A DNA stretch of 64,000 nucleotides from an uncultured virus (IMG/VR IMGVR_UViG_3300020446_000005) (IMGVR_UViG_3300020446_000005), one strand, 5' to 3'. Counted from the first letter of the stretch, positions 1,027 to 55,523 are shown. The notes: generated by a model from the letters alone, not told the origin. Made by a program: numbers and translations.

Positions 1027-1334
1027 TGAAATTTTTAGAGGAATTTAAAAATAAAAAGTTTGGAAATAATATGATTGCTCATCATTTAGATCCTAATGCT
1101 CCAGCAGGAGACATCCCTTTTACTGAACCTTCATTAGAAGATTTAGTAGAAATGGTAAAAAAAGGTAAACTTGGAAAAGAAGTATTAGGTGATGATGCAG
1201 ATATTATGCTTCAATATGGCACTCCATCTCAAAGACGTAAACAGTTAGAAGATACAGGTTCTTTAGAGATACCTGTAATACCTTTTCAATCTGGTAAACA
1301 ATTTTTAGATAGTTACAGAACTCCCCCAGGATAA
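1026..1334 (+). CDS. Hypothetical protein with FL motifs at both ends
   Basis: TAATG coupling; MKFLEEF...GKQFLDSY. Confidence 0.75.
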   Translation: MKFLEEFKNKKFGNNMIAHHLDPNAPAGDIPFTEPSLEDLVEMVKKGKLGKEVLGDDADIMLQYGTPSQRRKQLEDTGSLEIPVIPFQSGKQFLDSYRTPPG

Positions 1335-1615
1335 TGAGATTTGCTGGTTCAATAGGATATTATCCAAGTTTTCCTGTTAAATATTCGAATATGTACAATG
1401 ATTATTCGATGGTAACAGCAGGATTAGCAGATCCTTTTCAACCACAAAAGAAAGAAAAATCAAATAAATGTAATTTTGTAGTTTCTTACATAGGAAAGAA
1501 TGAACCTAAATTTGAAATGAACAATCCACATTATATGAGAGAGGTTTCAAGATCTTATTCTGATAGTATTCCCCCTGTTATTCTTAATAAAGAGCCAATA
1601 CAGAATAGATTTTAA
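1334..1615 (+). CDS. Hypothetical protein
   Basis: TAATG-coupled ORF starting MRFAG. Confidence 0.7.
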   Translation: MRFAGSIGYYPSFPVKYSNMYNDYSMVTAGLADPFQPQKKEKSNKCNFVVSYIGKNEPKFEMNNPHYMREVSRSYSDSIPPVILNKEPIQNRF

Positions 1616-3468: not shown

Positions 3469-3764
3469 TGGCTGCTCGTATACCTAGAAAAAAAGGACAG
3501 CCTGCTAAAAGTGATAAGCATAGCGATCTATATACAGATGAAGATCCAAAGGGTACTATTAAGGGTTTAGGTTTTAAAAATAAAAGAGTCGCTGCATTAA
3601 GTGTTGCGAAAATAAGAAGGAGTAATAGAACTCATGCTCATAAAACTCAAGCTGCTATAGCTATGGAGCAAAGAGCAAAAGTTGCTGGTAAAAAAGAAGC
3701 TGCGTCTGTCTATCGTAAATTTATTGAGCAACAAAAAATAAAAACTAAACAGAAAAATGCTTAG
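3468..3764 (+). CDS. Basic conserved marine-phage hypothetical protein
   Basis: HSDLYTDEDPKGTIKGLGFK...AMEQRA. Confidence 0.75.
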   Translation: MAARIPRKKGQPAKSDKHSDLYTDEDPKGTIKGLGFKNKRVAALSVAKIRRSNRTHAHKTQAAIAMEQRAKVAGKKEAASVYRKFIEQQKIKTKQKNA

Positions 3765-3903
3765 ACCTAATACAGAATTATTACGAGAAGAGGTAAACCA
3801 AGGTCAGCCTAGATATGTAGATGTATCTAAAGGTACTCTTACAGCAAAAACTAAAAGAGCTGAAGCTATAAACAAAGCTACTTTAAGAAAAAAATCAAAA
3901 TAA
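3757..3903 (+). CDS. Small basic hypothetical protein (48 aa)
   Basis: MLRPNTELLREEV...LRKKSK; overlaps previous stop. Confidence 0.5.
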   Translation: MLRPNTELLREEVNQGQPRYVDVSKGTLTAKTKRAEAINKATLRKKSK

Positions 3904-4290
3904 TTAATAAGTCCGATAAACAGGCATATTACCTCTTGGTACTCCTTTCATTAAATCAGGATAATTTTTTAATGTTTTATCATAATCAAAACCTTCGGAA
4001 GCTGGTATTCCACCTTCAATAAAGTCCATATAGCCTCTTATTCTGTCTCTTAAAATGGGTGAGTCAAAGCCAAATTCTTTGTACATTTTTTCTTGTTCTG
4101 CATCTTTAAATTGACCAAAGTTACCTACTGCATGATACTTAGCCTTCTGTCCCCCAGGAAATGTTTCTGGTAATTCAGGATAATCCACTCGCCTATTAAA
4201 ACCTGTTTCCATATCAGGAACAGTAACGTCTGCAGCTATAAGATTTTTAGAGTAGTTATCTAAAAATGATTTTGTGTTAATTTTTGCCAT
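3904..4290 (-). CDS. Hypothetical protein with N-terminal FL motif
   Basis: MAKINTKSFLDNYSKNL. Confidence 0.75.
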   Translation of the reverse strand: MAKINTKSFLDNYSKNLIAADVTVPDMETGFNRRVDYPELPETFPGGQKAKYHAVGNFGQFKDAEQEKMYKEFGFDSPILRDRIRGYMDFIEGGIPASEGFDYDKTLKNYPDLMKGVPRGNMPVYRTY

Positions 4291-4293
4291 AAT

Positions 4294-4449
4294 TTATGCT
4301 TTTTTTGGATTTTTTTTACCATGAGCCTTGTAATCCATAGCAAGACCTATAGCTATTGCTTGTTTTCTTTTCTTTACTGTTTTATCTCCTCCTGATTTAA
4401 GTTCGCCTGCTTTAAATTCAGACATAACTTTTTCCATTTTATGAGGCAT
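4294..4449 (-). CDS. DUF6496-like small basic protein (51 aa)
   Basis: KVMSEFKAGELKSGG...KRKQAIAIGL. Confidence 0.75.
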   Translation of the reverse strand: MPHKMEKVMSEFKAGELKSGGDKTVKKRKQAIAIGLAMDYKAHGKKNPKKA

Positions 4450-4470
4450 TTTTTTCTGAAATTCTTTTAT

Positions 4471-4617
4471 TTATTTTAATTTATCTATTTTTTTTATTAC
4501 TTTATTGTAGAGACTAAATTTAATACCCTTATGCTTTAAAACAATCATTTTTGACATAGTCATCTCTGTACTATAAAAAATGATAGGTTCGTTCTCTAGT
4601 CCTGCATCGCCACTCAT
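4471..4617 (-). CDS. Small hypothetical protein (48 aa)
   Basis: MSGDAGLENEPIIFYSTEMT... Confidence 0.55.
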   Translation of the reverse strand: MSGDAGLENEPIIFYSTEMTMSKMIVLKHKGIKFSLYNKVIKKIDKLK

Positions 4618-4649
4618 AACCATATTTTAAGCTATTATTACGATTAAAT

Positions 4650-4877
4650 TTATTTTTTATTAACTTTCTTTAATTCTTTCTTTGCTTCTTTAACATATTT
4701 TTTTAGAACATCCATATCTAACATAAGATAACCATCTTCTTCAAAGACCGCTTCTGGTATGACATCCCTAACTTGTTGTGCAGAAAAACCAGCTCTAAGT
4801 CTTTGATCAATATCAAATTCTTCTTTATATCTAAATTGAATAGCTTGGAGCTGTTTTAATTTTTCTAAAGCACTCAT
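4650..4877 (-). CDS. Stand-alone body of a peptidase S74 / intramolecular chaperone domain
   Basis: ALEKLKQLQAIQFRYK...AGFSAQQVRDVIPEAV...DGYLMLD; lacks the N-terminal SDxRxK motif. Confidence 0.75.
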   Translation of the reverse strand: MSALEKLKQLQAIQFRYKEEFDIDQRLRAGFSAQQVRDVIPEAVFEEDGYLMLDMDVLKKYVKEAKKELKKVNKK

Positions 4878-6856
4878 GCTTGTAATTCTTTTACAAAATA
4901 TGCTACTTCAGCTAAATCATCTCTAATTAAATTCATATTTGTAAGAGGCATAATATTAAATTTACATCTCAAATCACATCTTCTTCCTCTTCTTCCTCTT
5001 CTTCCTCTTCTTCTGCTTCTGCTCCTTCTTGCACCACTTGATCTTCTTCTACTTCTGCTTGTATTACTACTTCTACTCCTTGAGGAACTTCTTCTACTTT
5101 TACTTCCTGTAGCTCCTCTAGATCTACTACCTGCACTACCTGCTGAGCCTCCTCTTCTACCTGCTCTTCCTGTAGATCTTCTACTACTACTTCTTGTTCC
5201 ACTTCTTGAGGCTCTCCTACTTGCACTCCCTGTCGCTCCTCTTGATCTTGAAGTTGCTCCACTGGATCCACTTCTTCTACTCTTACTTCTGTTAAATGAC
5301 CTTGATTTTTTTACTGCTGTCTTAGCAGATGCTGCAGTTGCTGATGTTCCTGACCTTGTTTGTGATTTTCTACCTCTTGATGCTGCTATTCTCTTTTTTC
5401 GTGCTTCATTTCTTGCTTTAGCCCTGTCTCGCATCTTTTGTCTATTCTCTGCATTTACCTGAGAGACTGTCTTTCCTTGCAATGTTCTGTTTACTGCTGC
5501 TGCTTGAGCTCTAGCAACTCCTGTGTTTGAAGTTGGCCTGGCTACTCCGCTCTCATCAATAGAAACATTTGGATTCCTTGCTGCTATTGATTGTGCTTTA
5601 GCAACATTACTAGGGTCTTTGGCAATTCCTAAATTTACACTACCAAAAGGAACACCTTGACCAGCTAATCGTGTTTGTCCAGTAGTTTGTTGTATAGCTT
5701 TCTGTGCTGATTCTTGTGTAGCTGCCTCTGCACTCGGAGTAAATACTCTAGATACACCTTCGACTGTTTTTTTTAGTAAATCTCCAGTTTTTTGAAGAAT
5801 TCCTTTTTTCTTTGGTTGTTCAGATTCTTTTTTATTTATTTCCGCTGCTTCTTTAGAAGAACGTATAATTCCATATTTATCTAGATTTTCATTTGGTCCT
5901 AATTTTTTTAACCTTTCTCTATACTCAGGAGCAGTCAAAATATATTTATTCATAGGATCTGGTCTACCTTTTTCATCATATTCAAGTTGACTTTTGTAAT
6001 AATTTAAATCCTTAATTTGTTTATTAGTATCCTCTAATCCACGCACCGCAGCGTTTAATCTTTCCTTTTGTTTTGTTTTATAATCTTCTTTTGCATCTGT
6101 AGCAATATATCTTTTTATAGTTTTTGTGTCGTATTCTGCTTTATCTTGAAAATAATCAGTAGCTGTAGGAGTTCCATCAGGAGCTGTTCCATACCTGATA
6201 TTTTTTCTTTTAAATGTATCTATTGCTTCTTTATCACTTAGACCAGAATAATCAGAATCCCTTCGTGCTTGTTTTAGTCTAATAGTATCTTTATACTCCT
6301 CGGAGCCAAATCTTCCTCTATCTGTCGCCTCTTTAAATTCAGGTTTTGAAAAAATACTCTTATAATCTGTTTTTGGTTCATCTTTATCAAATATCTGCTT
6401 AATTTGTTTATAGCTATCCTCATAGCCTGGGGATGTTTTTTGTTTATAACTAGTGTCATAACTAGCATCAGCAAGATTTTGCGAGGCTTGATTTACTATA
6501 CCAGTTACTTTATTAGCATCATTAGCAACACTAAAATCACTACCACTAAAGCCAGATAAGTCTGCTGATGCAACTTTTACATTATTTCTAGGATCAAAAG
6601 CAGCACCATCTGGAGAGAAAAATCCGCCCTTATTGGTAGGTGAAGCGTCAACTCTGTCTTTAAAAGGATTAAATCTATCTCCCATTCCTCTACCAGTTTC
6701 TTTTACTGCCCCTGTACTTTCCTGACCACTTAATCTTTTACTAGCATTATCAATATCTCTAATCATTTTATCTAATGGATCTACTCTATAAGTAGCCATT
6801 GCCATCCTTGTGGCTTTCTTTGATGGTGCTTTAATACCAGATCCTTCTATTGCCAA
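4874..6856 (-). CDS. 660 aa protein with protamine-like Arg/Ser tail and terminal S74-like CDLRCK motif; putative virion core protein
   Basis: Long ORF (TTG start, TAGAAT upstream); ~140 aa R/S/G/A/T low-complexity tract then CDLRCKFNIMPL. Confidence 0.8.
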   Translation of the reverse strand: MAIEGSGIKAPSKKATRMAMATYRVDPLDKMIRDIDNASKRLSGQESTGAVKETGRGMGDRFNPFKDRVDASPTNKGGFFSPDGAAFDPRNNVKVASADLSGFSGSDFSVANDANKVTGIVNQASQNLADASYDTSYKQKTSPGYEDSYKQIKQIFDKDEPKTDYKSIFSKPEFKEATDRGRFGSEEYKDTIRLKQARRDSDYSGLSDKEAIDTFKRKNIRYGTAPDGTPTATDYFQDKAEYDTKTIKRYIATDAKEDYKTKQKERLNAAVRGLEDTNKQIKDLNYYKSQLEYDEKGRPDPMNKYILTAPEYRERLKKLGPNENLDKYGIIRSSKEAAEINKKESEQPKKKGILQKTGDLLKKTVEGVSRVFTPSAEAATQESAQKAIQQTTGQTRLAGQGVPFGSVNLGIAKDPSNVAKAQSIAARNPNVSIDESGVARPTSNTGVARAQAAAVNRTLQGKTVSQVNAENRQKMRDRAKARNEARKKRIAASRGRKSQTRSGTSATAASAKTAVKKSRSFNRSKSRRSGSSGATSRSRGATGSASRRASRSGTRSSSRRSTGRAGRRGGSAGSAGSRSRGATGSKSRRSSSRSRSSNTSRSRRRSSGARRSRSRRRGRRGRRGRRCDLRCKFNIMPLTNMNLIRDDLAEVAYFVKELQA

Positions 6857-6895
6857 AATCTTTTCTAATACTTGTTAGAACTATTCTATTATTAC

Positions 6896-7087
6896 TTAAC
6901 AATCAAATAGTCTTAAATCCTTTCTATAGTCATTTAAACCTCTGTGCAAACAAATAAGTTTAAAATTATTAAGAGAAATATTTTTATTAATCAATTTATT
7001 TTCTTTTAACTCTACTAAAATATCGTTAAATTCTAAGAGCTCTGAATCCAATGATTGTTGAGGATTAGGTGTAATCACAACTTTCAT
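6896..7087 (-). CDS. Hypothetical protein
   Basis: 63 aa ORF in minus-strand block. Confidence 0.5.
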   Translation of the reverse strand: MKVVITPNPQQSLDSELLEFNDILVELKENKLINKNISLNNFKLICLHRGLNDYRKDLRLFDC

Positions 7088-7119
7088 AGGTAAATTATTG
7101 TATTACCTTAATTGTAACT

Positions 7120-7371
7120 TCAATTATCGTTCTTCAGCAATAGTAATTTTTTAATCTCTGAGTCATTAGCTTCAATTAGATTGGTTATCATTTTTAATTT
7201 CTTTTCAGCATTCAAAGCCCTTTGACTCCAATAAACTAAATGTCTATTAGTATTATCTAATTCTGTTTCTAAAGCGGTTTGGAATAAAGTTGATGGACTT
7301 ATTTGTTTACCAGACTGTTTCCATCTCTTATGTAGTTCTCCTGGAACAGATACGCTAACTACTTCTGCCAT
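7120..7371 (-). CDS. Ribbon-helix-helix (CcdA-like) DNA-binding protein
   Basis: VVSVSVPGELHKRWK...ISPSTLFQTALETEL followed by coiled coil. Confidence 0.55.
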   Translation of the reverse strand: MAEVVSVSVPGELHKRWKQSGKQISPSTLFQTALETELDNTNRHLVYWSQRALNAEKKLKMITNLIEANDSEIKKLLLLKNDN

Positions 7372-7412
7372 GTGACTATAACAAACTATAAGCCAACATA
7401 GCACAAAAATTA

Positions 7413-7610
7413 TTAATCAACACCTTTAAGTGAAGATTTTATTTGATCGGTTAATACAATTGGTATTGGTTCGCTTACTGTAAGGTCAGTTGTAGCTCGA
7501 ATACCATTAGCAAATTGTTCTGCTTCATCAATACATTTGAATTGTGGAGCATGAGCACCTATTGAATCGTTATAAACAAATACAACATATCCTGTAACTG
7601 GAAAAGTCAT
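7413..7610 (-). CDS. Hypothetical protein
   Basis: 65 aa ORF. Confidence 0.65.
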   Translation of the reverse strand: MTFPVTGYVVFVYNDSIGAHAPQFKCIDEAEQFANGIRATTDLTVSEPIPIVLTDQIKSSLKGVD

Positions 7611-7657
7611 TTAGTAAAAATACTTACCTTTTGAAGATACTCTTAATTTCTTAAATT

Positions 7658-7828
7658 TCAACCGATATAAAATGGTCCAGACTTATAAAATAAATCTGGT
7701 TGTCCTGCTACTGTTTCATCTGCTTCCACACAATCAGTCACTTTAATTACTTGACTTAAACCACCACTAGTAGCTTTTGAGAGTACTGCCCATGCGAGTT
7801 GTTTGCCGTTGTTTTTGTTGTCGCTCAT
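7658..7828 (-). CDS. Small hypothetical protein (56 aa)
   Basis: MSDNKNNGKQLAWAVLS...; AAGGA upstream. Confidence 0.6.
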   Translation of the reverse strand: MSDNKNNGKQLAWAVLSKATSGGLSQVIKVTDCVEADETVAGQPDLFYKSGPFYIG

Positions 7829-7878
7829 AGTTATTTTCCTTGTTCGTGTAATTTATTATGCAGTAAAGATACTTGCAT

Positions 7879-7896
7879 TGTACAAATATTTGTACA
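7879..7896. promoter_or_regulatory. Perfect 18 bp palindrome, candidate operator
   Basis: TGTACAAATATTTGTACA in intergenic DNA. Confidence 0.5.
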
Positions 7897-7978
7897 TTAA
7901 AAAACCATTGCTATGACTAAGCTCTGGATACTCAATCTAGCAATGGCTTGGGGTTTTGGGAAGTAAAATTCTTAAGAA

Positions 7979-8152
7979 TTAAAAAGTGTTAAGAAAATCA
8001 TCGTTTAAGTTATCATCTCCTAATAAACCAGCCCCTAAAGCTGCCCCATATTTTATATTTCCACGAGATATAGAGTTTTCTACTTGATGACGAAGCATGT
8101 CCTTATATATGTCAGAGTCATCTAAAACTCCTGATACATAATTAAATTTCAT
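7979..8152 (-). CDS. Small hypothetical protein (57 aa) with C-terminal FL motif
   Basis: MKFNYVSG...GAALGAGLLG...NDDFLNTF. Confidence 0.55.
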   Translation of the reverse strand: MKFNYVSGVLDDSDIYKDMLRHQVENSISRGNIKYGAALGAGLLGDDNLNDDFLNTF

Positions 8153-8175
8153 TGTATTAAATGTAAAGTGCCTTC

Positions 8176-8451
8176 TTATGATACATCAAAAGAACTGGTT
8201 TCGAAACCAGCTGCCAAATCTGGAGGAGCATTTGGTGGTAGAAAATGACTTCTTATTCCATTAAATAATTCAATAGTTTGATCTAAACTTAATTCTTGCT
8301 CACCATGAATAGTATCTATAAAAATAGGGTCTTCTCTTAAACCGTCTAAAGTTTTTAAAGCACCATCAATTTTTTTCAAAATAGCTGCATGATGTTTTTT
8401 TATGTCAGTTTTTTCTTTAAGTTTCATAATCATTACAGTATGGAAGTTCAT
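8176..8451 (-). CDS. Hypothetical protein
   Basis: 91 aa helical ORF. Confidence 0.65.
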   Translation of the reverse strand: MNFHTVMIMKLKEKTDIKKHHAAILKKIDGALKTLDGLREDPIFIDTIHGEQELSLDQTIELFNGIRSHFLPPNAPPDLAAGFETSSFDVS

Positions 8452-8501
8452 ACATTAGTGTAGCTATTTTATTAAAGCACCTATAAGTTTAATTTCAAAC
8501 T

Positions 8502-8888
8502 TTACATTCTTCTAAGTCCTTTATCTTCCATTTTCTTTCTATCTTCATTTCTCATGGGTCCATAAAGAGGTCGACGCTCTCTACGTCTTCTAGGTCGTCC
8601 TTCTTGTTGCCTTGGTGGTGGTGTACGACGAGTTGGTCTTTCTGATATTTCTGGTATCTCTTGTCTTGGTTTTTCTGTTTCTTTTACTGATTCAGTAAAG
8701 TCTTGGCCAAAGACATCTCTACTTTCTTCTCCACTTAAGCGTTCACGTCTTTTTTTATCTTTTGAAGGAGCAAAAAATTCTCTTCTTGCTTGGTCTTCTC
8801 TCATTCTTTCCCCTGCAATTCTACCTTTTCTTTTCGGACCCATTGGTGTATTTACTATATTCCTTGGTCTATTTCTAGTACTTCCCAT
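8502..8888 (-). CDS. Arg-rich disordered hypothetical protein
   Basis: GRIAGER motif; TAGAAT upstream. Confidence 0.7.
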   Translation of the reverse strand: MGSTRNRPRNIVNTPMGPKRKGRIAGERMREDQARREFFAPSKDKKRRERLSGEESRDVFGQDFTESVKETEKPRQEIPEISERPTRRTPPPRQQEGRPRRRRERRPLYGPMRNEDRKKMEDKGLRRM

Positions 8889-8916
8889 AATAAATGTAAC
8901 TTTTTCTGTATTCTAC

Positions 8917-9405
8917 TTATCCTCTATACATAGACTTTATAGGTAATGGCATTTTACTAACAGCATTTCCTATACCTTTAAAATTATCACCTAAAAGTAA
9001 TTCAGATGCCTTATCTCCTTTCGGTAGTGAGCTGTCATATATTTCTTTTTCTCTCATTAATTGTCCTGTCATAAATGATCTTCTTTCTTTTGCTCTTTTT
9101 AATAATCTTTCTTTTACAGAATCAAAATCAAATTTCTTTTCTCCCTCTATATTTTTTTTAATTTCTTGTTTTTCTTCCATATTTTTATTTTGAGTTTGGG
9201 CTTCTCTTGAAAAAGGTCTATCACTACTAATTGATGAACCCCCTGCAGCAGAACCTAAAGCACTAGCAGTTGCACCAGCAGCACCACCTAGAACCGCCTT
9301 TCCTAATCCTAAAGGACCTCCAGCAACTCTTTTGATGATATTTTTAAATACACCTGAACCACCGCTACCACCTAAACTTAGTGGTTTTCCTTTACTAGCA
9401 CCCAT
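8917..9405 (-). CDS. Gly/Ala-rich hypothetical protein (virion-internal-like)
   Basis: GGPLGLGKAVLGGAAGATASALG segment. Confidence 0.7.
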   Translation of the reverse strand: MGASKGKPLSLGGSGGSGVFKNIIKRVAGGPLGLGKAVLGGAAGATASALGSAAGGSSISSDRPFSREAQTQNKNMEEKQEIKKNIEGEKKFDFDSVKERLLKRAKERRSFMTGQLMREKEIYDSSLPKGDKASELLLGDNFKGIGNAVSKMPLPIKSMYRG

Positions 9406-9429
9406 TTTTATAGATAATTTTCTTCTATT

Positions 9430-9624
9430 TTAATCCTTCTCCTCTTCAACTTTAAATACAAGTAGCTCTTCACCAGGTTTTACATCCTTTAATTCTGGAT
9501 GAATGTTTCTTACTTGATTAAAATCATTCAATGTTAAGGTCATCATTCGCCATGTAAAGGCAAATGTAGCCCCAGAAATCCCTGCGAAAAACATTAAATA
9601 GATAAAAATAGTTATTTCGTTCAT
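9430..9624 (-). CDS. DUF2973-like cyanobacterial membrane protein
   Basis: TM helix then IHPELKD...GEELLVF. Confidence 0.7.
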   Translation of the reverse strand: MNEITIFIYLMFFAGISGATFAFTWRMMTLTLNDFNQVRNIHPELKDVKPGEELLVFKVEEEKD

Positions 9625-9664
9625 TTATAGGATTTAAAATATATAATAATATTCTAATGCAAGT

Positions 9665-10798
9665 GTGAACGAAGAAGAATTTTTTAGAAAATATATGAAT
9701 CCAGACGATGGTATTTATAGATCAGCTCGTCTTATGGGTAGAATGGCTGGTGAGAGAGATATTGTTGGTAATTATTTTAAACGTATTCGTAATGCTCAAG
9801 GTACAGGAAAAGATTTTTATTTACCAGAAAATACAAAAGAATATAAACCTATGAGAGATGAAGCCTTTACAAATATATACGGTAAAGGTTTTGTTGACAT
9901 GTATGACAGATATAAACCCATAGGAGAGGGTGCTTATGGAGCAGTTTTTGAAAAACCTGGAGACTCTCAAAGAGTCTTAAAAGTACAGAGACAAGACACA
10001 TTAGATCGACAGAAATTTGGAGATACTGAAATAGCTAGACAAACAGAAGCAGCAGAAATGGGAGTTGCTCCAAAAATTCATTCAGTTACTAATTTTCCTT
10101 ATAAGCATGAAGTGCCTATGGAAATACTTAGATCATTTGATAATAGATATGGAACAGTAGATCCAAGACATCAAGTTACTGAGATGGATAGAGTTAATAC
10201 AGTTGACTCTCAAGGTGGAAAAATAAAGATGTTGCAAGATTATGTGCAGAAATTACAAGGAGGCGAGAGAGGTTATACAACTTATGACAAATTTGAAGAG
10301 CCTTACCAAAGGGAGAATGCTAAATATAATTTAGCCATGTCAAAAGCTCAACTCCACTTAGCTGATAGGGGTATAGTTCATACTGATTTAGGACAATATC
10401 CTTACGGAGATGCAAGAGAAGACCATGTTGCATACAATCCAAATACAAATAAGATGCAATTTATAGATTATGGACACACAGAAAAATATAATCACGCAGA
10501 AAATTTACATCAACATACTAAAAATTTAAATCTAAGAAATGAAGAGTTAAAAGATTATACATATGGAGCTAATGTAGAGCATTTTCTAGACCATAAAGTA
10601 GCAAATATTGTTAGAGGAATGGAAGCTACTGGTAGTAAGAGTGATGCAAAAGAATTTAGAAAAATATACAATGATGCAGTTGATAAAGATTTACTTGCAG
10701 CTAATCAATTAGTTAATGAAGGTAGAGAAATAATCAGAAATAAATCATTTAAAGATGTGGTGCCTTTTTTAAATAGAGAAGAATTAGATCTTATGTAA
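9665..10798 (+). CDS. Ser/Thr protein kinase-like protein
   Basis: IGEGAYGAV Gly loop, VLKV Lys, helix-C Glu, IVHTDL catalytic loop, FIDYG. Confidence 0.85.
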   Translation: MNEEEFFRKYMNPDDGIYRSARLMGRMAGERDIVGNYFKRIRNAQGTGKDFYLPENTKEYKPMRDEAFTNIYGKGFVDMYDRYKPIGEGAYGAVFEKPGDSQRVLKVQRQDTLDRQKFGDTEIARQTEAAEMGVAPKIHSVTNFPYKHEVPMEILRSFDNRYGTVDPRHQVTEMDRVNTVDSQGGKIKMLQDYVQKLQGGERGYTTYDKFEEPYQRENAKYNLAMSKAQLHLADRGIVHTDLGQYPYGDAREDHVAYNPNTNKMQFIDYGHTEKYNHAENLHQHTKNLNLRNEELKDYTYGANVEHFLDHKVANIVRGMEATGSKSDAKEFRKIYNDAVDKDLLAANQLVNEGREIIRNKSFKDVVPFLNREELDLM

Positions 10799-10852
10799 AT
10801 AAAACAAACCCTCCCCTTAAAACGAAAGCAAATCGACTAAAACGAAAGTATA

Positions 10853-10933
10853 TTAATGTGGATCATACATTTTCATAAGAATATAAACTCCTGTTACACC
10901 AAGAGTTAAAAGTAAACCAATAAAATAAATCAT
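10853..10933 (-). CDS. 26 aa single-TM peptide
   Basis: MIYFIGLLLTLGVTGVYILMKMYDPH. Confidence 0.45.
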   Translation of the reverse strand: MIYFIGLLLTLGVTGVYILMKMYDPH

Positions 10934-10939
10934 AAATAA

Positions 10940-11182
10940 TTAAATTTTTTTTATTATAGGGACTCTTTTTTTTAATAGACCCCCTCTTAAAAATTCTCTT
11001 TCAGAAATATCATCTACAGTTTTTTCTGGTTCTTGAATTGTATTCCATTTATGATTACATTCTTCACAACATCTTCTCCTAAGAGTGCGATGATCATCTT
11101 CATTTACCCTAGTAAATAATATTCTCTGAAAAGTATATACCTCACACTTTGGACAGATGACGTAGGAAATTCTTTTTCTCAT
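10940..11182 (-). CDS. NrdR-like N-terminal zinc-ribbon protein
   Basis: CPKC...RRRCCEECNHKWNT; ATGA overlap supports start 11182; no ATP cone. Confidence 0.75.
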   Translation of the reverse strand: MRKRISYVICPKCEVYTFQRILFTRVNEDDHRTLRRRCCEECNHKWNTIQEPEKTVDDISEREFLRGGLLKKRVPIIKKI

Positions 11183-11433
11183 GGAGATTCTAATTCTATT
11201 CTGTGTTGTGAAATTAATGATGGCCTGGATTGATGATCCCAAAGCACTTGATAATGCGGAACTTTAGCTCCACAACTATTTTCTTTTGCTACAACTTCTT
11301 TTATAATTCCTTTTCTAATTTTTGTTGGTACGGCTTTTCCATTAAGCATTACATAACGATTAGAAGTTTTTAAAACGTATCTAATTCTGACACGATCATT
11401 AACTTTATATTTTGGTTGATAGTTGGAAGCCAT
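11179..11433 (-). CDS. SH3/KOW-like hypothetical protein
   Basis: KYKVNDRV...GIIKEV...YQVLWD. Confidence 0.65.
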   Translation of the reverse strand: MASNYQPKYKVNDRVRIRYVLKTSNRYVMLNGKAVPTKIRKGIIKEVVAKENSCGAKVPHYQVLWDHQSRPSLISQHRIELESP

Positions 11434-24607: not shown

Positions 24608-25138
24608 ATGAGCTTTGCAGGTTTAATGAGAGGTGACAGAGATTTTTTAAAAGATCCTGTAAATTTCAAAGATAGTTATGTTCGTGGATTGAAAGATGCT
24701 TTTGATAAAAGAAAAGATACATCAAGTGAGATAGAATCTGATGAAATTTATGCAACAGAAAACAAAGCTTTTAACGATAAATTTAAAAGAGATAATTCAA
24801 AAGGATTTTTAGATAGTGCTATTTCAGGAGGATTAGATTATTTTAAGAAAAGTCAAGAAAAATCTGATACTGATAAAATAATTGATTTTGCAAAATCACA
24901 ACAAGGAAAAGCTCAGTTTGGAGACAATACAAGCGGTTTCTCTTCTGAAGTTGCAGATGGACTTAATATTTTCCAACCACCAAGTCCAAACCAAATGATG
25001 TTTATTCCAGGAAAGGAAGGAACAGGTAAAAGCTTTACTCAAAGATTAGCTGGTGGTGCTGCTGGTTTATTAAGTGGTCTTTCAACAGGGATTCCTCACG
25101 CAGGTGGTATTGGAGCTGTAGCTGGTTTCTTTGGATAA
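24608..25138 (+). CDS. Ejection-like protein with C-terminal glycine zipper
   Basis: RLAGGAAGLLSG...GGIGAVAGFFG. Confidence 0.65.
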   Translation: MSFAGLMRGDRDFLKDPVNFKDSYVRGLKDAFDKRKDTSSEIESDEIYATENKAFNDKFKRDNSKGFLDSAISGGLDYFKKSQEKSDTDKIIDFAKSQQGKAQFGDNTSGFSSEVADGLNIFQPPSPNQMMFIPGKEGTGKSFTQRLAGGAAGLLSGLSTGIPHAGGIGAVAGFFG

Positions 25139-25979: not shown

Positions 25980-26909
25980 ATGTCACAAGAAAAACTTTCT
26001 GGAATTGATTTTGATACTGGAACAAGAGTAAACAGATTATTTGATCGTGAGACTCTTTTAGATTCAGTCAAAAAATCTAATCCTTTCGGTAAAATAAAAG
26101 ACCTTACTCAATTAGAAGAAGCTTTTGGAAGTTTGAATGAAATTCCAGAAGCTTTTAAACCTATACAGAATTTAGATATAAAAAAAGGAAGAATCTCTGG
26201 AGACAGGGCAGCTGTTCTTCAATTAAATCCAAATGTATCTTTTAAAGGTCTAGGTTCGGATGAAGAGATTAGACAAATAGAATACAGTGGTTTGGGAGGT
26301 AAAGATCCAAAATACGAAATAGTTAAGAAATCTGCTCCGTATGCTGGATTTCCAAGAAGCATTGCCGGAGCAATAGATCTTGTTACAGGTAATACATTTG
26401 GACTCGATTTAGATAGAAGAGGACAACTAGGTGATAAAAGAAGAATAGTTGATATAAGTGATGCTACAAATTATTTAGTAAGCCCTGCACAGGCAAAAAA
26501 AGTAGAGCAAGAATTAGAAAAAGCAGGATTTGAGGGAAAAACAAAAAGTCCTCTTGGAAACATAGATGAGATAACAGAAGCTGAACTTGCATATCAAGAG
26601 AAGATGAATCCAATTCTTCGACAAAGAAGAAGAGATGCAGCTGTAGATGCACAATTACAATACATAGCTACTGAACCAATTAGACAAGCATTTTTAAATA
26701 AAGCTGCAGAGCAGGCAGCACAAAGAGGATTAAGAGTTAGAGGAGCATTAGAAGCAATGCCTTCTAATATTCAAAACATCATGAGTGCTAAGCAGGGTCA
26801 AAGAGCTTTAGCATCTTCTGCTTTTGCTGAGGAAGCTAGAGCTTTAGCCACACAACAAGATGCTGCTACAAGATTTGCAGGTCAAGGACTTGGCCGTCGA
26901 TTTGGCTAA
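25980..26909 (+). CDS. Putative internal virion protein
   Basis: A/Q/R-rich helical C-terminus ending TRFAGQGLGRRFG. Confidence 0.65.
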   Translation: MSQEKLSGIDFDTGTRVNRLFDRETLLDSVKKSNPFGKIKDLTQLEEAFGSLNEIPEAFKPIQNLDIKKGRISGDRAAVLQLNPNVSFKGLGSDEEIRQIEYSGLGGKDPKYEIVKKSAPYAGFPRSIAGAIDLVTGNTFGLDLDRRGQLGDKRRIVDISDATNYLVSPAQAKKVEQELEKAGFEGKTKSPLGNIDEITEAELAYQEKMNPILRQRRRDAAVDAQLQYIATEPIRQAFLNKAAEQAAQRGLRVRGALEAMPSNIQNIMSAKQGQRALASSAFAEEARALATQQDAATRFAGQGLGRRFG

Positions 26910-27432: not shown

Positions 27433-27914
27433 AGAAATGGATTCAGACTTTATCTAATAAAGATCGCGAATCCTTTCTTGAATTTTGTAAAAAAGCTAGT
27501 TCTCCAATACAGATATATTTATTTGCCCGATTTTTAGGTTTTCAAGGGACGGTAGTGGAATGTAATGAGTGGTCGATAAAAGAATTTAAAAAACGTAATT
27601 TTAATGAAGTTTTAGAATCTGAAATAGATAATATGAGAGTTGATATAAGTAAACTTCGTGATGCTATTGATATGGGAATTGTAAAACAAGATATGGGTGC
27701 TGCAAGAATTGCTATGCTACAAAAAGAGTTGAGAGGAGCTATTAAACAAATAGAAGATAAAAAAATCTTACAAGATAAACAAGGTTTAATTCTTGCAGGT
27801 GCAGATAGAGCATTGAGAGAAATGCTTTCTATTTTTAGAGATGATCCAATAGAAGGTCCTTTACAGGAAGCATCGATGGGAGTCTGGACAAAAATCTTAC
27901 AGGAGGAATCTTAA
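27429..27914 (+). CDS. Helical protein, candidate terminase small subunit
   Basis: Size, coiled-coil core and position upstream of terL; no diagnostic motif. Confidence 0.4.
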   Translation: MKKWIQTLSNKDRESFLEFCKKASSPIQIYLFARFLGFQGTVVECNEWSIKEFKKRNFNEVLESEIDNMRVDISKLRDAIDMGIVKQDMGAARIAMLQKELRGAIKQIEDKKILQDKQGLILAGADRALREMLSIFRDDPIEGPLQEASMGVWTKILQEES

Positions 27915-28513
27915 TGTTAAATAGAATTATTGTTATTGATGATTTTATAGATAAAAATTATCAGGAACAAATTAAAAATACTTTAATGGGAGAGGAGACA
28001 TTTAATGACTTTGATTTTCCTTGGTTTTACAATGATGATGTAACAGAAGCTTTTCAAGAAGGTAATCAAGGTAGACCATGTTTATCTCACGTTTATTTAG
28101 AATATGGAGAGGATGAAGAGAGTTATGTAAATAGTGAATTTCATGATTTTTTTATGCCTTTATTAAATAGGGCAGCATTTAGATTACAGCAACGAGAAGC
28201 TTTACCATTGCAGGGTAGATCTTTTTTACAATTTCCGTTAAATTTAGAATATAAAGATCTTGATACACCTCATTTAGATATCGATGATAGGGATGATTAT
28301 TACATCGTTTTATATTACGTATGTGATAGTGATGGTGATACAGTTATTTTTAATGAAACCGTAGAATCAGAAAGATATACCGTAAAACAACGTGTATCTC
28401 CTAAGCAAGGACGGGTTGTAATTTTTGATGGTAGTTTAATGCATACGGCACAACAACCCAAAGATAATGTTCGATGTGTTGTTAACTACAATTTAGAGTA
28501 TGGCCGGTACTAG
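27914..28513 (+). CDS. 2OG-Fe(II) oxygenase
   Basis: TPHLD, LYYVCDSDGDT, PKQGRVVIFDG, MH, R-x-V-x-N. Confidence 0.9.
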   Translation: MLNRIIVIDDFIDKNYQEQIKNTLMGEETFNDFDFPWFYNDDVTEAFQEGNQGRPCLSHVYLEYGEDEESYVNSEFHDFFMPLLNRAAFRLQQREALPLQGRSFLQFPLNLEYKDLDTPHLDIDDRDDYYIVLYYVCDSDGDTVIFNETVESERYTVKQRVSPKQGRVVIFDGSLMHTAQQPKDNVRCVVNYNLEYGRY

Positions 28514-30023
28514 TATTTATAGCGTTTATAGACGCACAGCTAGGGCAGCTGCAAAACAACAAGTAGTAAAAAAAACATCTAGTGTTGACGTAGAAAAGGC
28601 TAGAAAAAATTTTGCATATTTTTGTGATGTTGTAGGGGGAAAACCTCCAGCCAGGCACCATAAAGAATGGCATAAATATTTATGTACAGGTGACGATAGT
28701 GTTTGTTTAAGAGGAATTGCAGGACCTAACATTGATATTCTTGCTCCTAGAGGATCAGCAAAATCTACAGTTCTAGGTTTGTATACAGCATGGGCAATAG
28801 GTGTTCATGCAATGCAAAAACTACCTTTAAAAATTTTATATATTTCTTACACAGTTGATGTAGCTAGACCAAAAAGTGCAGCGATTAAAAGAATTATAGA
28901 TGAGAATAAAATATACAAAGAAATCTTCCCAAAAGTTAAAATAGCTAAAGGAATAAATTCAAATGAATATTGGAGTATAGATTGGAAATTTGCAGGAATT
29001 AAATCTACAGGTGAAGAAGAATTTAGTGTTTGTTGTGCAGGACTAAAAGGTGCGGTTACATCTAAAAGATCACATCTCTGTATTATTGATGACGCTATCA
29101 AAAGTTCTGATGATATTAAAAATAAAGATATAAGACAGGCTATGGAAGATAACTGGAATGCGGTTATTGTTCCTACAATGTTTGAAGGTGCTAGAGCTAT
29201 ATGTTTAGGTACAAGATTTCGACATGATGATATTCACGCAAGAGCTTTCTTACCAGCCAATGGTTGGAAACAAATAGTACAATCTGCAATAACTGTAGAC
29301 AAAGAAGGAGAAGAGATATCTTATTGGCCTGATATGTGGAGTTTAGATTATTTAAAAGATAGAAGAAGAATAGCTCCTGTTGCATTTAGTTTTCAATATC
29401 AAAATCAAATTGTACAAACTAGTGAATTATCTTTATCTCCAGACTTAATTGTCAAAGGAGAAATATCAACAAGTTTTGACGCTTTAGGAGTTGGTGTTGA
29501 TTTATCTGCAGGAGTCAGAGAAAGAAACGATTATACAGTTTTTGTAATGGGAGGAAGAGTAAAAGATAAAATTCACATTGTTGATTGTAAAAGAGTAAGA
29601 GTTATGGGTAATTTAGAAAAATTAGATCTTTTGATGGAAATGATGGAGGAATGGGGTGTTATTCATCGAGATGGTAAAAATTTATTTCCTACAGGTACTT
29701 CGCTACATATATGGTCAGAAGCAGTTGCATATCAGGCATCTTTAGAAGCAGATTTTAAAAGGATATGTCAAACGGAACAAGGATTATATAATTTAATCTG
29801 GCATCCCGTCAAAGGATTTCGCGGAGACAAAGTTGCACGTTTTAGGGGGATTATGGGACTATTTGAGCAAAGAAAAATAATTTTTAATAAATATAGAAAG
29901 TTTGGAGCTCTTACAGATGAGATAGTAAATTTTGGGGTTAGCTCACATGATGATTGCGTAGATGCTTTAGTTTGGCTATGTAATGGGTTAATGACTCGCG
30001 GAAAACTTGAGTTAGAGTATTGA
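28500..30023 (+). CDS. terL: Terminase large subunit
   Basis: APRGSAKST Walker A, IIDD Walker B, GTRF, GVDL, HDDCVDA nuclease motif. Confidence 0.93.
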   Translation: MAGTSIYSVYRRTARAAAKQQVVKKTSSVDVEKARKNFAYFCDVVGGKPPARHHKEWHKYLCTGDDSVCLRGIAGPNIDILAPRGSAKSTVLGLYTAWAIGVHAMQKLPLKILYISYTVDVARPKSAAIKRIIDENKIYKEIFPKVKIAKGINSNEYWSIDWKFAGIKSTGEEEFSVCCAGLKGAVTSKRSHLCIIDDAIKSSDDIKNKDIRQAMEDNWNAVIVPTMFEGARAICLGTRFRHDDIHARAFLPANGWKQIVQSAITVDKEGEEISYWPDMWSLDYLKDRRRIAPVAFSFQYQNQIVQTSELSLSPDLIVKGEISTSFDALGVGVDLSAGVRERNDYTVFVMGGRVKDKIHIVDCKRVRVMGNLEKLDLLMEMMEEWGVIHRDGKNLFPTGTSLHIWSEAVAYQASLEADFKRICQTEQGLYNLIWHPVKGFRGDKVARFRGIMGLFEQRKIIFNKYRKFGALTDEIVNFGVSSHDDCVDALVWLCNGLMTRGKLELEY

Positions 30024-33876: not shown

Positions 33877-35022
33877 ATGTTTATAGATAACGATTTTCCG
33901 AAGCTGCTGGGTGCCGAGTTATATAGACCACATCCTGCGTATATCGTAGAGATGGCGACAGAGCCAGTGGTTGTACATGACTTCACCAAGCAGCCAGGTC
34001 AGACCGTTCAGTTAGACCGCTACCGTTTCTTTGGCAATCCTGGAACTAAGACCTCTAGAGAGAGGACTCAGGATCAGACAATTGGCACAGCAAACAGCAG
34101 ATCTATCGTAAAGGACAAAGTACTTGTATCTCTTAGGGAATATACAGGTCCTGCTGACCCTAACAACACAAATCTACCTAGCACATTCAAAATTGCTAGA
34201 GAAACCCTAATGACAGCTCAGCGTCTGCTTCTTGACACTGGAAATTTAAATATTTTCCATCAGTCAATTGGTTCGTTGACCTTGTTAGACGATTACCGTA
34301 GATGGCGTGACAGAGTCTTCTTGGATGAACTATTCAAGACAGAATCTCGTGGTGCTTCATCTGATACTCAAGGTGGATATTACTATCCAAATACAAAGAC
34401 AAAAGCTAACTCAACAACATTGAATGCTTACAGTGCTACAGAATTTGCTTCTGAGCGTTTTAAGTTCAATGTAAAAACTGACCTTCTTGAGGTTGTTAAG
34501 AGTTTAAGAAAGCGTCACGTACCTGTATTCGCAGACGGATATTATCGTTGTATAGCAGATCCTTCATTTATGAAAGATCTAAGAGCCGATCAAGGCTTCC
34601 GTGAAGTAGCAAGATATCCAGGAATGGGACAAGGCAACCCTCTAATGGGTGCTATGGGTCCTAACCAAGCTATCTATGCTGGTGGACAGTATGGACAAGC
34701 TCAGTTCGTAGCTGGTGAACCAGTTATGCCTTCTGGATTCGTGTTTGAAGGTGTAAGATTCTTCGAATCTACAAACTTCCCATCTAAGACAATTACGGTC
34801 GATATTGGAGATGGAAACGGTGCTTCCTCAAGAACAACTCCTGCTGGACTATTCTTTGGTCCTCAGTCAATTGGTGTTGGTATTGGTGGTCCAAATGCTC
34901 AAGTACTCATTAATAACAATGACGACTTCAGCAGATTCATTATTCTCATCTGGCAGTTATATGCTGGTTTTGCGAACTTGAATAAGGACTTCGTTACAAC
35001 AGCCTTCACAATTACTGAATAA
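33877..35022 (+). CDS. Major capsid protein (HK97-fold inferred)
   Basis: 381 aa, follows scaffold, high-expression codon bias, PGQTVQLDRY E-loop-like and GVRFFESTN P-domain-like motifs. Confidence 0.8.
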   Translation: MFIDNDFPKLLGAELYRPHPAYIVEMATEPVVVHDFTKQPGQTVQLDRYRFFGNPGTKTSRERTQDQTIGTANSRSIVKDKVLVSLREYTGPADPNNTNLPSTFKIARETLMTAQRLLLDTGNLNIFHQSIGSLTLLDDYRRWRDRVFLDELFKTESRGASSDTQGGYYYPNTKTKANSTTLNAYSATEFASERFKFNVKTDLLEVVKSLRKRHVPVFADGYYRCIADPSFMKDLRADQGFREVARYPGMGQGNPLMGAMGPNQAIYAGGQYGQAQFVAGEPVMPSGFVFEGVRFFESTNFPSKTITVDIGDGNGASSRTTPAGLFFGPQSIGVGIGGPNAQVLINNNDDFSRFIILIWQLYAGFANLNKDFVTTAFTITE

Positions 35023-36923: not shown

Positions 36924-37220
36924 ATGCCACATCAAGATAAAGCTTTTATAGAACATCCTAGTTACAAAATAAAACCAAGAACATCATTAGGATATACTTT
37001 AGGTATCAATAGAGATAAAGATATTATTTCTCCCAAAGAGAGAATAAAAGCTAGTCCTTTTAAAGAAAAGAGGCGTACTAGAATGGCAGGAGAAAAGCGA
37101 GTAGATATTTTTTCTGTTCGTCCTGATCAAGCACCTTTTACTTACACAAAAGGTACTAATTTACCCAAAAGGTTTACTCAAACTTTAGACATTCCAATTG
37201 ATAGGGAGGAAGAAAACTAA
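36924..37220 (+). CDS. Basic hypothetical protein
   Basis: Contains TRMAGEK. Confidence 0.7.
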   Translation: MPHQDKAFIEHPSYKIKPRTSLGYTLGINRDKDIISPKERIKASPFKEKRRTRMAGEKRVDIFSVRPDQAPFTYTKGTNLPKRFTQTLDIPIDREEEN

Positions 37221-54728: not shown

Positions 54729-55523
54729 TTAAATAAGACTCCAACTCCTCCACCATTTTGTAATTACATATTTACATCCTTTAATTGGTGGTAAGGCTTC
54801 ATGAATTGTTTTAAAGTTTGGAAAGCCATTACTGTATAAATTATTCCAAGCAATTAATAACCCTTTTTTTGGTTTAATTTTTAAATTTAATCGCTTAAAA
54901 TAAGTTTCTCCTCCCTCTTCAACATCATTTAAATAGATCATTGTTGTCCAAGTTCTTTGACCCATCCATTCACAGTAAGTTTTATATTCCTTTGTAAGTG
55001 GATTAAAAAAATCACAGTGTTCTTTATAGTATTCACCCTCTTCATATTTTTGAGCTTGCATTGTTTCGCCTAAAAACGGTTCTAATTCCATTAAATTTGA
55101 TATTTTCTTATCAATACTTAAATAAAAAGGGTCTTTAAAGTAATTCAAATCAGAGGTTTTACTAGTTCTGTAATTATTTACTAAACAAGTATCATCTCTG
55201 TCTGCAACTGTAGATGGTCTTAAATTTCTTGATATCATTGAGATTAATTTATCACATTCTTCATATCCTAGAAATCTTTTACATTGATATATCTGTGTAA
55301 AAGGATAGTAAATTCGATCTGTCTTTTCAATTATTGGATTATTATAAAACTCTTTATAATTTATTTTTGTTGGTTTTTTCTTAAATTGAGCTAATAATTG
55401 TAATTTGTTTATTTGTTCTTGATTTAAATTATATGTTTCTTTAAATTTTCTTTCTACTTGAGTTTTACTTGCACCACTAACAGATGCTTCAGTAAAATTT
55501 TTTATTAATTCCTCTATATTCAT
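54729..55523 (-). CDS. Prolyl 4-hydroxylase-like 2OG-Fe(II) oxygenase
   Basis: RTS, EHCDFF, QRTWTTMIYLNDVEEGGET, HEALP, KYVITKW. Confidence 0.9.
   Translation of the reverse strand: MNIEELIKNFTEASVSGASKTQVERKFKETYNLNQEQINKLQLLAQFKKKPTKINYKEFYNNPIIEKTDRIYYPFTQIYQCKRFLGYEECDKLISMISRNLRPSTVADRDDTCLVNNYRTSKTSDLNYFKDPFYLSIDKKISNLMELEPFLGETMQAQKYEEGEYYKEHCDFFNPLTKEYKTYCEWMGQRTWTTMIYLNDVEEGGETYFKRLNLKIKPKKGLLIAWNNLYSNGFPNFKTIHEALPPIKGCKYVITKWWRSWSLI

Follow-up and report, generated by a model that had tools for sequence, protein, structure and literature searches.

A polybasic-tailed phage protein with a candidate split, Cys-type Peptidase_S74 module beside an atypical kinase-like protein in an S-EIV1-like phage

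Does a protein with a long arginine/serine-rich tail, encoded close to a protein-kinase-like gene in an uncultured phage, condense the genome like a protamine under the control of phosphorylation, or is its tail better explained in another way? The question is raised by a stretch of 64,000 nucleotides from the uncultured virus IMGVR_UViG_3300020446_000005 (IMG/VR), which is referred to below, at its full length, as the window. The window is an S-EIV1-like phage, of a type known mainly from marine metagenomes, as judged by a portal-like protein of 751 amino acids (aa) with 52% identity to Synechococcus phage S-EIVl together with its large terminase (TerL) and major head protein (MCP). A first-pass annotation, made from the sequence alone, had paired a protamine-like Arg/Ser protein with a nearby Ser/Thr kinase and proposed that the two control packaging or ejection of the genome. 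The reading favoured here, to which we give an even chance of being correct, is that the first gene encodes a polybasic, probably nucleic-acid-binding phage protein that is matured by a split, Cys-type Peptidase_S74 (S74) module and lies beside an atypical kinase. It draws on the following features.

4874..6856, minus strand: open reading frame (ORF) with a TTG start, encoding a 660-aa polybasic-tailed protein (the RS protein)
4979..5356, minus strand: Arg/Ser tract of this protein, residues 501-626, net charge +43, defined by composition and dipeptide counts
4877..4978, minus strand: 34-aa module that begins Cys-Asp-Leu-Arg-Cys-Lys (the CD module) and ends the RS protein
4650..4877, minus strand: 75-aa ORF carrying the remainder of Peptidase_S74, including GFSAQ (Pfam PF13884)

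The RS tail ends at CDLRCKFNIMPL..., which passes into a helix (34 aa altogether), and the start of the 75-aa ORF overlaps the stop codon of the RS gene within ATGA, both in the window and in L001, the locus of a near-identical phage. The small ORF matched PF13884 with an expect value (E) of 2.4e-10 and 41 bits (cut-off 22), over profile positions 16-57 of 58 only. CD modules of two relatives (L035 and L051) aligned, from the Cys onwards, to positions 1-23 of the same profile at a sub-threshold E of 0.12-0.13. C27, D28 and K32 were invariant in 17/17 aligned modules, the nucleophile being always Cys and never Ser, and GFSAQ (in the context RAGFSAQQV) was invariant in 16/16 small ORFs. Canonical fused tail fibres recovered in the same search read SDERIKKNI..., equivalent to ...SDERIKKNIRPF..., and then continue directly into the part held by the small ORF. 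According to one report (PMC3742440), S74 cleavage requires a dyad of Ser and Lys spaced five residues apart, the region of trimerisation is GVIAQ, and MYRF S587C, which has a Cys nucleophile, still cleaves. This precedent and the motif positions together assign the dyad to the large protein and the trimerisation part to the small one: C27 is followed five residues on by K32, and the small ORFs contain G-[VF]-[IS]-A-Q. Judged by these motifs, the CD module matches what would be the N-terminal catalytic Ser/Lys strand of Peptidase_S74, with Cys replacing Ser. Since a stop codon and a change of frame divide what is normally one continuous intramolecular domain, the arrangement was filed as a split S74 variant and not as a standard member.

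Like the S74 domains of endosialidases, phage fibres and spikes, and MYRF, the module has a nucleophile-x4-Lys pattern at the cleavage point (C-D-x-R-x-K here, S-D-x-R-x-K there), possesses in GFSAQ a counterpart of the GVIAQ motif and forms the extreme C-terminus of the protein it would mature. Unlike them, it carries the catalytic strand on the substrate protein and the remainder in a separate, overlapping gene, has an invariant Cys in place of Ser and an extra helix of ~20 aa after the strand, and follows a disordered polybasic or glycine-zipper tail in place of a trimeric beta-helix; moreover, one small gene may here serve several tagged proteins, as in the record G007 described below. PHROG matches of the 75-aa ORF were all to tail-fibre families, and its comparison with 50,697 phage records gave two weak fibre matches only, so that the split cassette was not seen in any cultured phage of that collection. 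A non-exhaustive survey of the literature on protamine-like phage proteins and on S74 and other intramolecular chaperones likewise yielded neither a tailed-phage protamine nor a split S74. Prediction of a complex between the module and the 75-aa protein, using custom alignments, gave a score of 0.60 (0.00 for the best of three controls), with runs agreeing in at least 98% of contacts and a predicted local distance difference test score (pLDDT) of at least 77 for the partner. The mark applied is reached by 116/157 solved complexes and 2/215 mismatched pairs, and scores of 0.60 or less were given to only 18 of those 157 solved complexes and to both mismatches that passed. Each chain being one half of a known domain, likeness to solved S74 structures may account for the pass.

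The distribution of the cassette was followed with the 75-aa ORF in IMG/VR, and CD modules were also sought with a degenerate DNA pattern. Among 57 loci, 9 were canonical fused fibres (L061-L069) and 48 were split. The module stood at the end of the upstream ORF in 46 of the split loci, and in the remaining two the upstream ORF ended at a Gly-rich tail just ahead of the would-be module; L001 has the two-ORF layout as well. The frame offset between the ORFs was +1 in 45 loci and -1 in the lineage of the window, and the Met/Val start of the second was conserved, which argues for two genes; a programmed frameshift joining both ORFs was therefore rejected. Most split cassettes are borne by proteins of 150-420 aa with glycine-zipper-like tails, and in G002, G009 and G010 such a cassette lies 3-4 kb upstream of TerL and the portal gene, a position that hints at the virion. 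In the window, CD module and small S74 ORF occur only once each, at the RS gene, and a relative of the Gly-rich cargo is encoded as well.

24608..25138, plus strand: 176-aa protein encoded upstream of terminase, its tail Gly-rich, similar to the L014 cargo protein (BLASTP E 2e-6)

Counterparts of this protein in relatives carry the CD module and the 75-aa ORF; the version in the window ends ...AGFFG at the would-be cleavage point, without a module, and the gene after it is 60% identical to the one that follows the cassette in L018. A similar pattern was found for the RS protein itself: 43 of its 85 homologues carry the module and the other 42 stop exactly where the Cys would be, as do some Gly-rich cargo proteins. 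This is what would be expected if removal of the module yields the same mature end, and thus an indirect sign of cleavage. In G007, three module-bearing proteins (one Gly-rich, two RS-type) are accompanied by one stand-alone small S74 gene only, which suggests that the small protein is used in trans.

Relatives of the 75-aa ORF also occur outside the cassette. Stand-alone forms numbered 497 (41-132 aa), with PF13884 in 120/120 among the matches listed; P0258, P0245, P0288 and others are 104-113 aa long and start MSDLTIHNG..., with Ser-Asp directly after the Met. By sequence, proteins of this type look like a whole domain of the post-cleavage kind encoded alone. Hint/intein-like domains, scoring under the cut-offs of Pfam, were observed in paralogues occupying the same genomic slot as the RS gene (L096, 3956..5572, minus strand; L122, 2421..4382, minus strand; L005, 6405..7871, minus strand), and in two of them the Hint domain directly precedes the Cys-Asp...Lys module (...SHNKR-CD...). 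This Hint-like domain, which matched Intein_splicing with E 3e-5, under the Pfam cut-off, is a predicted further self-processing element.

The Arg/Ser stretch described in the first-pass annotation proved real, the string quoted there falling within residues 501-626 of the RS protein. These 126 residues comprise 38 Arg, 38 Ser, 18 Gly, 14 Ala, 9 Thr and 5 Lys, with no Asp or Glu; at 30% Arg and 30% Ser, the tract is Arg-rich and acid-free as protamine-like viral core proteins are. Arg and Ser together made up 70% of the best 60-aa stretch of the protein; the runner-up among 126 crude ORFs reached 33%, and the remaining proteome of the window contains 4.7% Arg and 7.4% Ser. RS/SR dipeptides numbered 32 in the tract, against 23.0 ± 3.6 in shuffled versions (32 or more in 20 of 2000 shuffles). 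The underlying DNA consists of purine-rich short tandem repeats, (TCTTCT)n on the plus strand, and the reading frame is genuine, because it is continuous with N- and C-terminal parts conserved among the 85 homologues. These are 400-783 aa long, and all 85 end in a basic, nearly acid-free tail (median net charge +30 per last 100 aa). Ser-rich tails (at least 25 Ser per 100 aa) were found in only 14 of them, and 54 have 10 Ser or fewer per 100 aa, many being Lys/Ala-rich and ending ...KKKSKKK. In L001, whose kinase is 98% identical, the orthologue is 608 aa long and has a short basic run only; other loci hold 1-3 tandem paralogues with tails rich in Gly, Ser, Arg, Lys and Thr. The small number of Ser-rich tails and the short tail in L001 indicate that the Arg/Ser form is the polybasic-tail expansion of one lineage and not a conserved Ser-bearing element.

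An AlphaFold 2 (AF2) model of the RS protein had a mean pLDDT of 60, with disordered segments below 50 at residues 1-150 and 501-644 and a helical middle that includes long helices at 244-290 and 464-501. No match to the protein was found in Pfam, PHROG or NCBIfam, nor a usable one in the ESM Atlas; the best hit in BFVD had E 8e-3 at a template modelling score (TM-score) of 0.08, and the best VIA result of the fold search (Z 5.9) aligned mostly single helices. A tblastn search of the RS protein and the kinase against the 50,697 phage records gave no match. The alignment of the RS family was too variable for seeding a locus search, and IMG/VR searches with single members yielded little. The slot in which the gene lies (4471..7087) was observed to be hypervariable, at the same place in 22 loci; it is bounded by conserved small genes, and its content ranges from 1-3 polybasic paralogues to wholly unrelated repeat proteins.

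In the favoured reading, the polybasic tail is the hallmark of a fast-evolving phage protein family that occupies this slot, and the Arg/Ser tract a lineage-specific, repeat-driven expansion of the disordered, acid-free C-terminus. The 75-aa protein would dock onto the CD module in trans, and assembly of the two would lead to a cut ahead of the Cys, freeing a mature protein that ends in a poly-Arg run. The exposed polycationic tail would then bind nucleic acid, most likely phage DNA, and the mature product may be a virion-internal or ejected escort protein. Such a mechanism of maturation, which the first-pass annotation missed together with the module itself, does not need the kinase.

Several observations weigh against this reading. 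The link of the module to S74 positions 1-23 rests on its motif and on the two sub-threshold matches; the module of the window itself and two others had no match in Pfam even at E 10 (two of five modules matched), and many family members read CDIFLK, with the Arg replaced. The prediction of the complex offers weak support. S74 domains normally fold as trimeric beta-structures, and the segment upstream of the cleavage point is disordered in the AF2 model. Many module loci have no small S74 gene within reach, which leaves room for some other role of the module. The small genes of the minus-strand block around the RS gene do not look structural, and this block lies outside the structural module. 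The activity of the kinase is putative, as its catalytic loop lacks the Asn.

The kinase-like gene and the genes that separate it from the RS gene are located as follows.

9665..10798, plus strand: 377-aa protein-kinase-like protein, divergent from the minus-strand block
6896..9624, minus strand: intervening block of small genes, mostly kept in relatives (tblastn table, 22 loci)

The first-pass annotation had described, about 3 kb from the RS gene, a kinase with intact Gly loop, Lys, HTD and DYG, and these motifs held in an alignment of 30 relatives (39-93% identity): G87, G89 and G92 of the Gly loop, K106, E122, H239-x-D241-L242 and D268 of DYG were invariant in 30/30, corresponding to the Gly loop, beta3 Lys, alphaC Glu, HxD and DFG Asp of protein kinases. 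The lack of the usual downstream Asn, pointed out in the same annotation, was borne out as well: the catalytic loop reads HTDLG-x(4-6)-REDH, with R251 and H254 invariant in place of a conserved Asn, and the Mg-binding Asn of HRDxxxxN is therefore missing. The AF2 model (pLDDT 88.2, predicted TM-score 0.84) shows a bilobal kinase fold, to which both structure comparisons agree. Foldseek gave E of ~1e-5 to the eukaryotic-type kinases MSK1, MAPK and CK2, at TM-scores of 0.3-0.4 only; VIA-align gave 162 chains with Z of at least 8, the best being STK33 (Z 10.6, root-mean-square deviation 4.1 A, 205 residues aligned), and Z of 10.6-9.2 for many protein kinases, RIO and PknB among them, of which no family stood out as the nearest. 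Curated models did not recognise the protein, as it matched neither Pkinase in Pfam (YrbL-PhoP_reg at E 0.056 only) nor any family in NCBIfam or PHROG. A profile of the family reached E 0.012 at best against PDB sequences. Against 1.84 billion representatives it returned 75 at E 0.001, of which 19, all from aquatic metagenomes or phage contigs, had E of 1e-30 or less, and it reached Pkinase-bearing proteins with E down to 6e-12; among 21 weaker, longer matches, 10 carry Pfam Pkinase (E < 0.001), 8 of them above the gathering score.

The product of 9665..10798 is thus a genuine, if atypical, member of the kinase-like superfamily, on a small and isolated branch. With minimal bacterial and phage kinases (Pkinase, YrbL-PhoP_reg, OspG/NleH type) it shares the fold and the invariant Gly loop, Lys, Glu, HxD and D[YF]G; it differs in HTDLG...REDH, which is without the Lys and Asn of HRDLKxxN, in the absence of a significant Pfam kinase model, in a conserved His-rich C-terminal part (H277, H282, H284, H306 and H310) and in the small size and isolation of the family. 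Another phage-encoded kinase is gp0.7 of T7 (T7K). PMC13645617 states that in T7K homologues DPV replaces DFG and a shut-off domain at the C-terminus is usual, and that T7K favours nucleic-acid-binding substrates, which makes a basic DNA-binding neighbour conceivable as a substrate. The kinase of the window has DYG rather than DPV and is therefore not a T7K member; it also has no shut-off domain and no PHROG match. The sequence does not reveal the class of its putative substrates, among which host or defence proteins would be at least as likely as the tail.

How closely the two genes are linked was assessed at 7 kinase loci from IMG/VR and 80 of 107 metagenome loci that were kept, 21 of which were informative in having at least 5 kb upstream of the kinase. 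The co-occurrence that the first-pass annotation had proposed as a check was found: an RS-family gene lies upstream of the kinase, on the opposite strand and at a distance of 1.7-5.8 kb (2.8 kb in the window), in 17/21 informative loci, and this adjacency persists down to 40% kinase identity. However, conservation extends to the genes that lie between the two and beyond them, and is often stronger there than in the kinase (tblastn, 22 loci); since the whole block is syntenic, adjacency is weak evidence of a functional link. The four informative loci without an RS-family gene were L003, L005, L006 and L007. In L003 the block is kept, with an unrelated repeat protein of 494 aa in the slot; in L005 the slot is occupied by a Hint-plus-repeat protein, again with the kinase. 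The records for these loci (G002 and G003) are 96% and 93% complete and without the polybasic family, with the exception that G002 has the CD module on a Gly-rich protein. Independent distribution, which had been named as an argument against a kinase/protamine pair, was seen at these two loci, where the kinase is retained beside unrelated slot proteins. Two complete genomes with the split cassette have no kinase. Lys/Ala-rich tails adjoin the kinase just as RS tails do, and in G007 two RS-rich paralogues lie 2.6 kb from it. At L128, the kinase is 42% identical and the flanking genes are 63-98% identical.

A motif and an N-terminal helix had been cited as features shared by the two proteins. 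The first, R-[MFLVI]-A-G, is present in both (kinase residue 26, RS protein residue 396) and enriched in the window, with 8 occurrences in its ORFs compared with 1.24 ± 1.13 expected (none of 500 shuffles reached 8), whereas it is neither enriched in G002, G009 and G010 nor conserved across the kinase family; for these reasons, its use as a general packaging or cleavage signal was dropped. It was also seen in 1334..1615, 8917..9405, 25980..26909, 36924..37220 and others, and three occurrences lie 23-26 residues from the N-terminus (in a 128-aa protein, a 162-aa protein and the kinase). The FL-like N-terminal helix did not hold up, as BLASTP of both N-termini gave E 0.16.

These data bear on three other explanations of the locus. 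Baculovirus P6.9, the C-terminal domain of the hepadnavirus core protein and adenovirus VII/mu are basic, genome-condensing elements whose binding to nucleic acid is tuned by phosphorylation. The first-pass annotation extended this principle to the window, with a protamine-like condenser in the capsid whose serines are phosphorylated by the neighbouring kinase, switching packaging or ejection. The tract does resemble such proteins in being an Arg-rich, Ser-containing, acid-free and disordered segment of high positive charge, with RS/SR alternation above that of shuffles; the kinase has intact core motifs, the two genes remain adjacent in most informative loci, including G007 with its pair of RS-rich paralogues, and T7K, according to PMC13645617, also phosphorylates phage proteins besides preferring nucleic-acid-binding ones. 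Yet there is no sequence relationship to the proteins named, the tail sits on a protein of 400-783 aa and ends at a predicted cleavage tag, and in relatives it is mostly Lys/Ala-rich and Ser-poor, also where it adjoins the kinase. The adjacency itself is not specific, the genes being on opposite strands within a block that is syntenic as a whole and the kinase being retained beside unrelated proteins, and R-x-AG ties the two no closer. Specific support for a phospho-switched protamine was not obtained; the link between tail and kinase comes down to block synteny, and we consider such a switch very unlikely. A combined version, in which two-part tag-and-partner maturation is joined to a protamine-like tail of 126 aa that accompanies the DNA and has its charge tuned by the adjacent kinase, would give a tailed-phage counterpart of P6.9 or the hepadnavirus core tail, with a 34-aa tag on several unrelated proteins and one 75-aa S74 fragment cutting in trans; it appears highly improbable.

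The two remaining explanations take the RS protein out of the interior of the virion. It could be an external trimeric fibre or whisker, on which the S74 module trimerises and then leaves, so that the polybasic tip sticks to the anionic host surface. S74 is typical of tail fibres and spikes, the PHROG matches of the 75-aa ORF and the fused forms L061-L069 belong there, the long modelled helices could make a coiled-coil stalk, and a hypervariable slot with tandem paralogues is common for host-range genes. Against this stand the distance of the gene from the tail-fibre genes at 44-49 kb, a model without a fibre fold (the hits at Z 5.9 and below being to single helices), disorder instead of a beta-helix ahead of the cleavage site, and the other cargo of the cassette, a glycine-zipper, membrane-like protein encoded beside terminase and portal; a fibre seems quite unlikely. 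Alternatively, the protein may be an unpackaged, intracellular factor for host takeover or anti-defence that coats nucleic acid of the host or the phage, the kinase being separate, early and host-directed, with a function of the T7K type. Both genes do lie among small genes without annotated function on the strand opposite the structural module, both evolve faster than their neighbours (as at L128), and, according to PMC13645617, host and defence proteins are the targets of those phage kinases that have been investigated. The S74 cassette, however, is otherwise found in the packaging and structural module, and the kinase, by its DYG and the absence of a PHROG match, is no T7K homologue; we regard this explanation as unlikely. 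The favoured reading, maturation of a polybasic protein by a split S74 module, remains the one that we give an even chance.

Other features of the window provide the setting of the locus.

4294..4449, minus strand: DUF6496 protein (E 1.5e-10), flanking the region
10940..11242, minus strand: small NrdR-like zinc-ribbon protein (E 2.2e-5, under the Pfam cut-off), flanking the region
27914..28513: 199-aa ORF directly ahead of the terminase gene
28500..30023: TerL
33877..35022: MCP
44-49 kb of the window: tail-fibre genes
54729..55523: match to phrog_61, 2OG-Fe(II) oxygenase family (E 6.9e-24)

The G+C content of the window is ~33%, and no tRNA genes were found in it. Between the RS gene and the kinase, a second Arg-rich protein was observed (8502..8888, minus strand), which is 128 aa long, rich in Arg and Glu, and contains the run RPRRRRERR and R-I-A-G at residue 23; it has a homologue in 1 of 22 related loci (L118, 57%). 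Promoter-like sites in 3700-11400 showed no excess (28, compared with 31.2 in shuffles), and a scan of the same interval for terminator-like sites was uninformative.

In terms of novelty, a split, Cys-type S74 tag on non-fibre proteins ranks above a phospho-switched protamine. If true, it would be a trans-acting version of S74, a domain so far known as strictly intramolecular, would extend the action of S74 to non-fibre cargo that is disordered or membrane-like, and would represent a small natural tag/partner system for cleavage. With the kinase, the protein-kinase-like superfamily gains a branch that is isolated, restricted to phages and unusual in its catalytic loop; a switch formed by kinase and protamine would be striking if true, synteny being what speaks for it here. 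To our knowledge, little is known for tailed phages about proteins that escort DNA or neutralise its charge, and the polybasic family is a candidate for such a protein in the abundant uncultured relatives of S-EIV1-like cyanophages.

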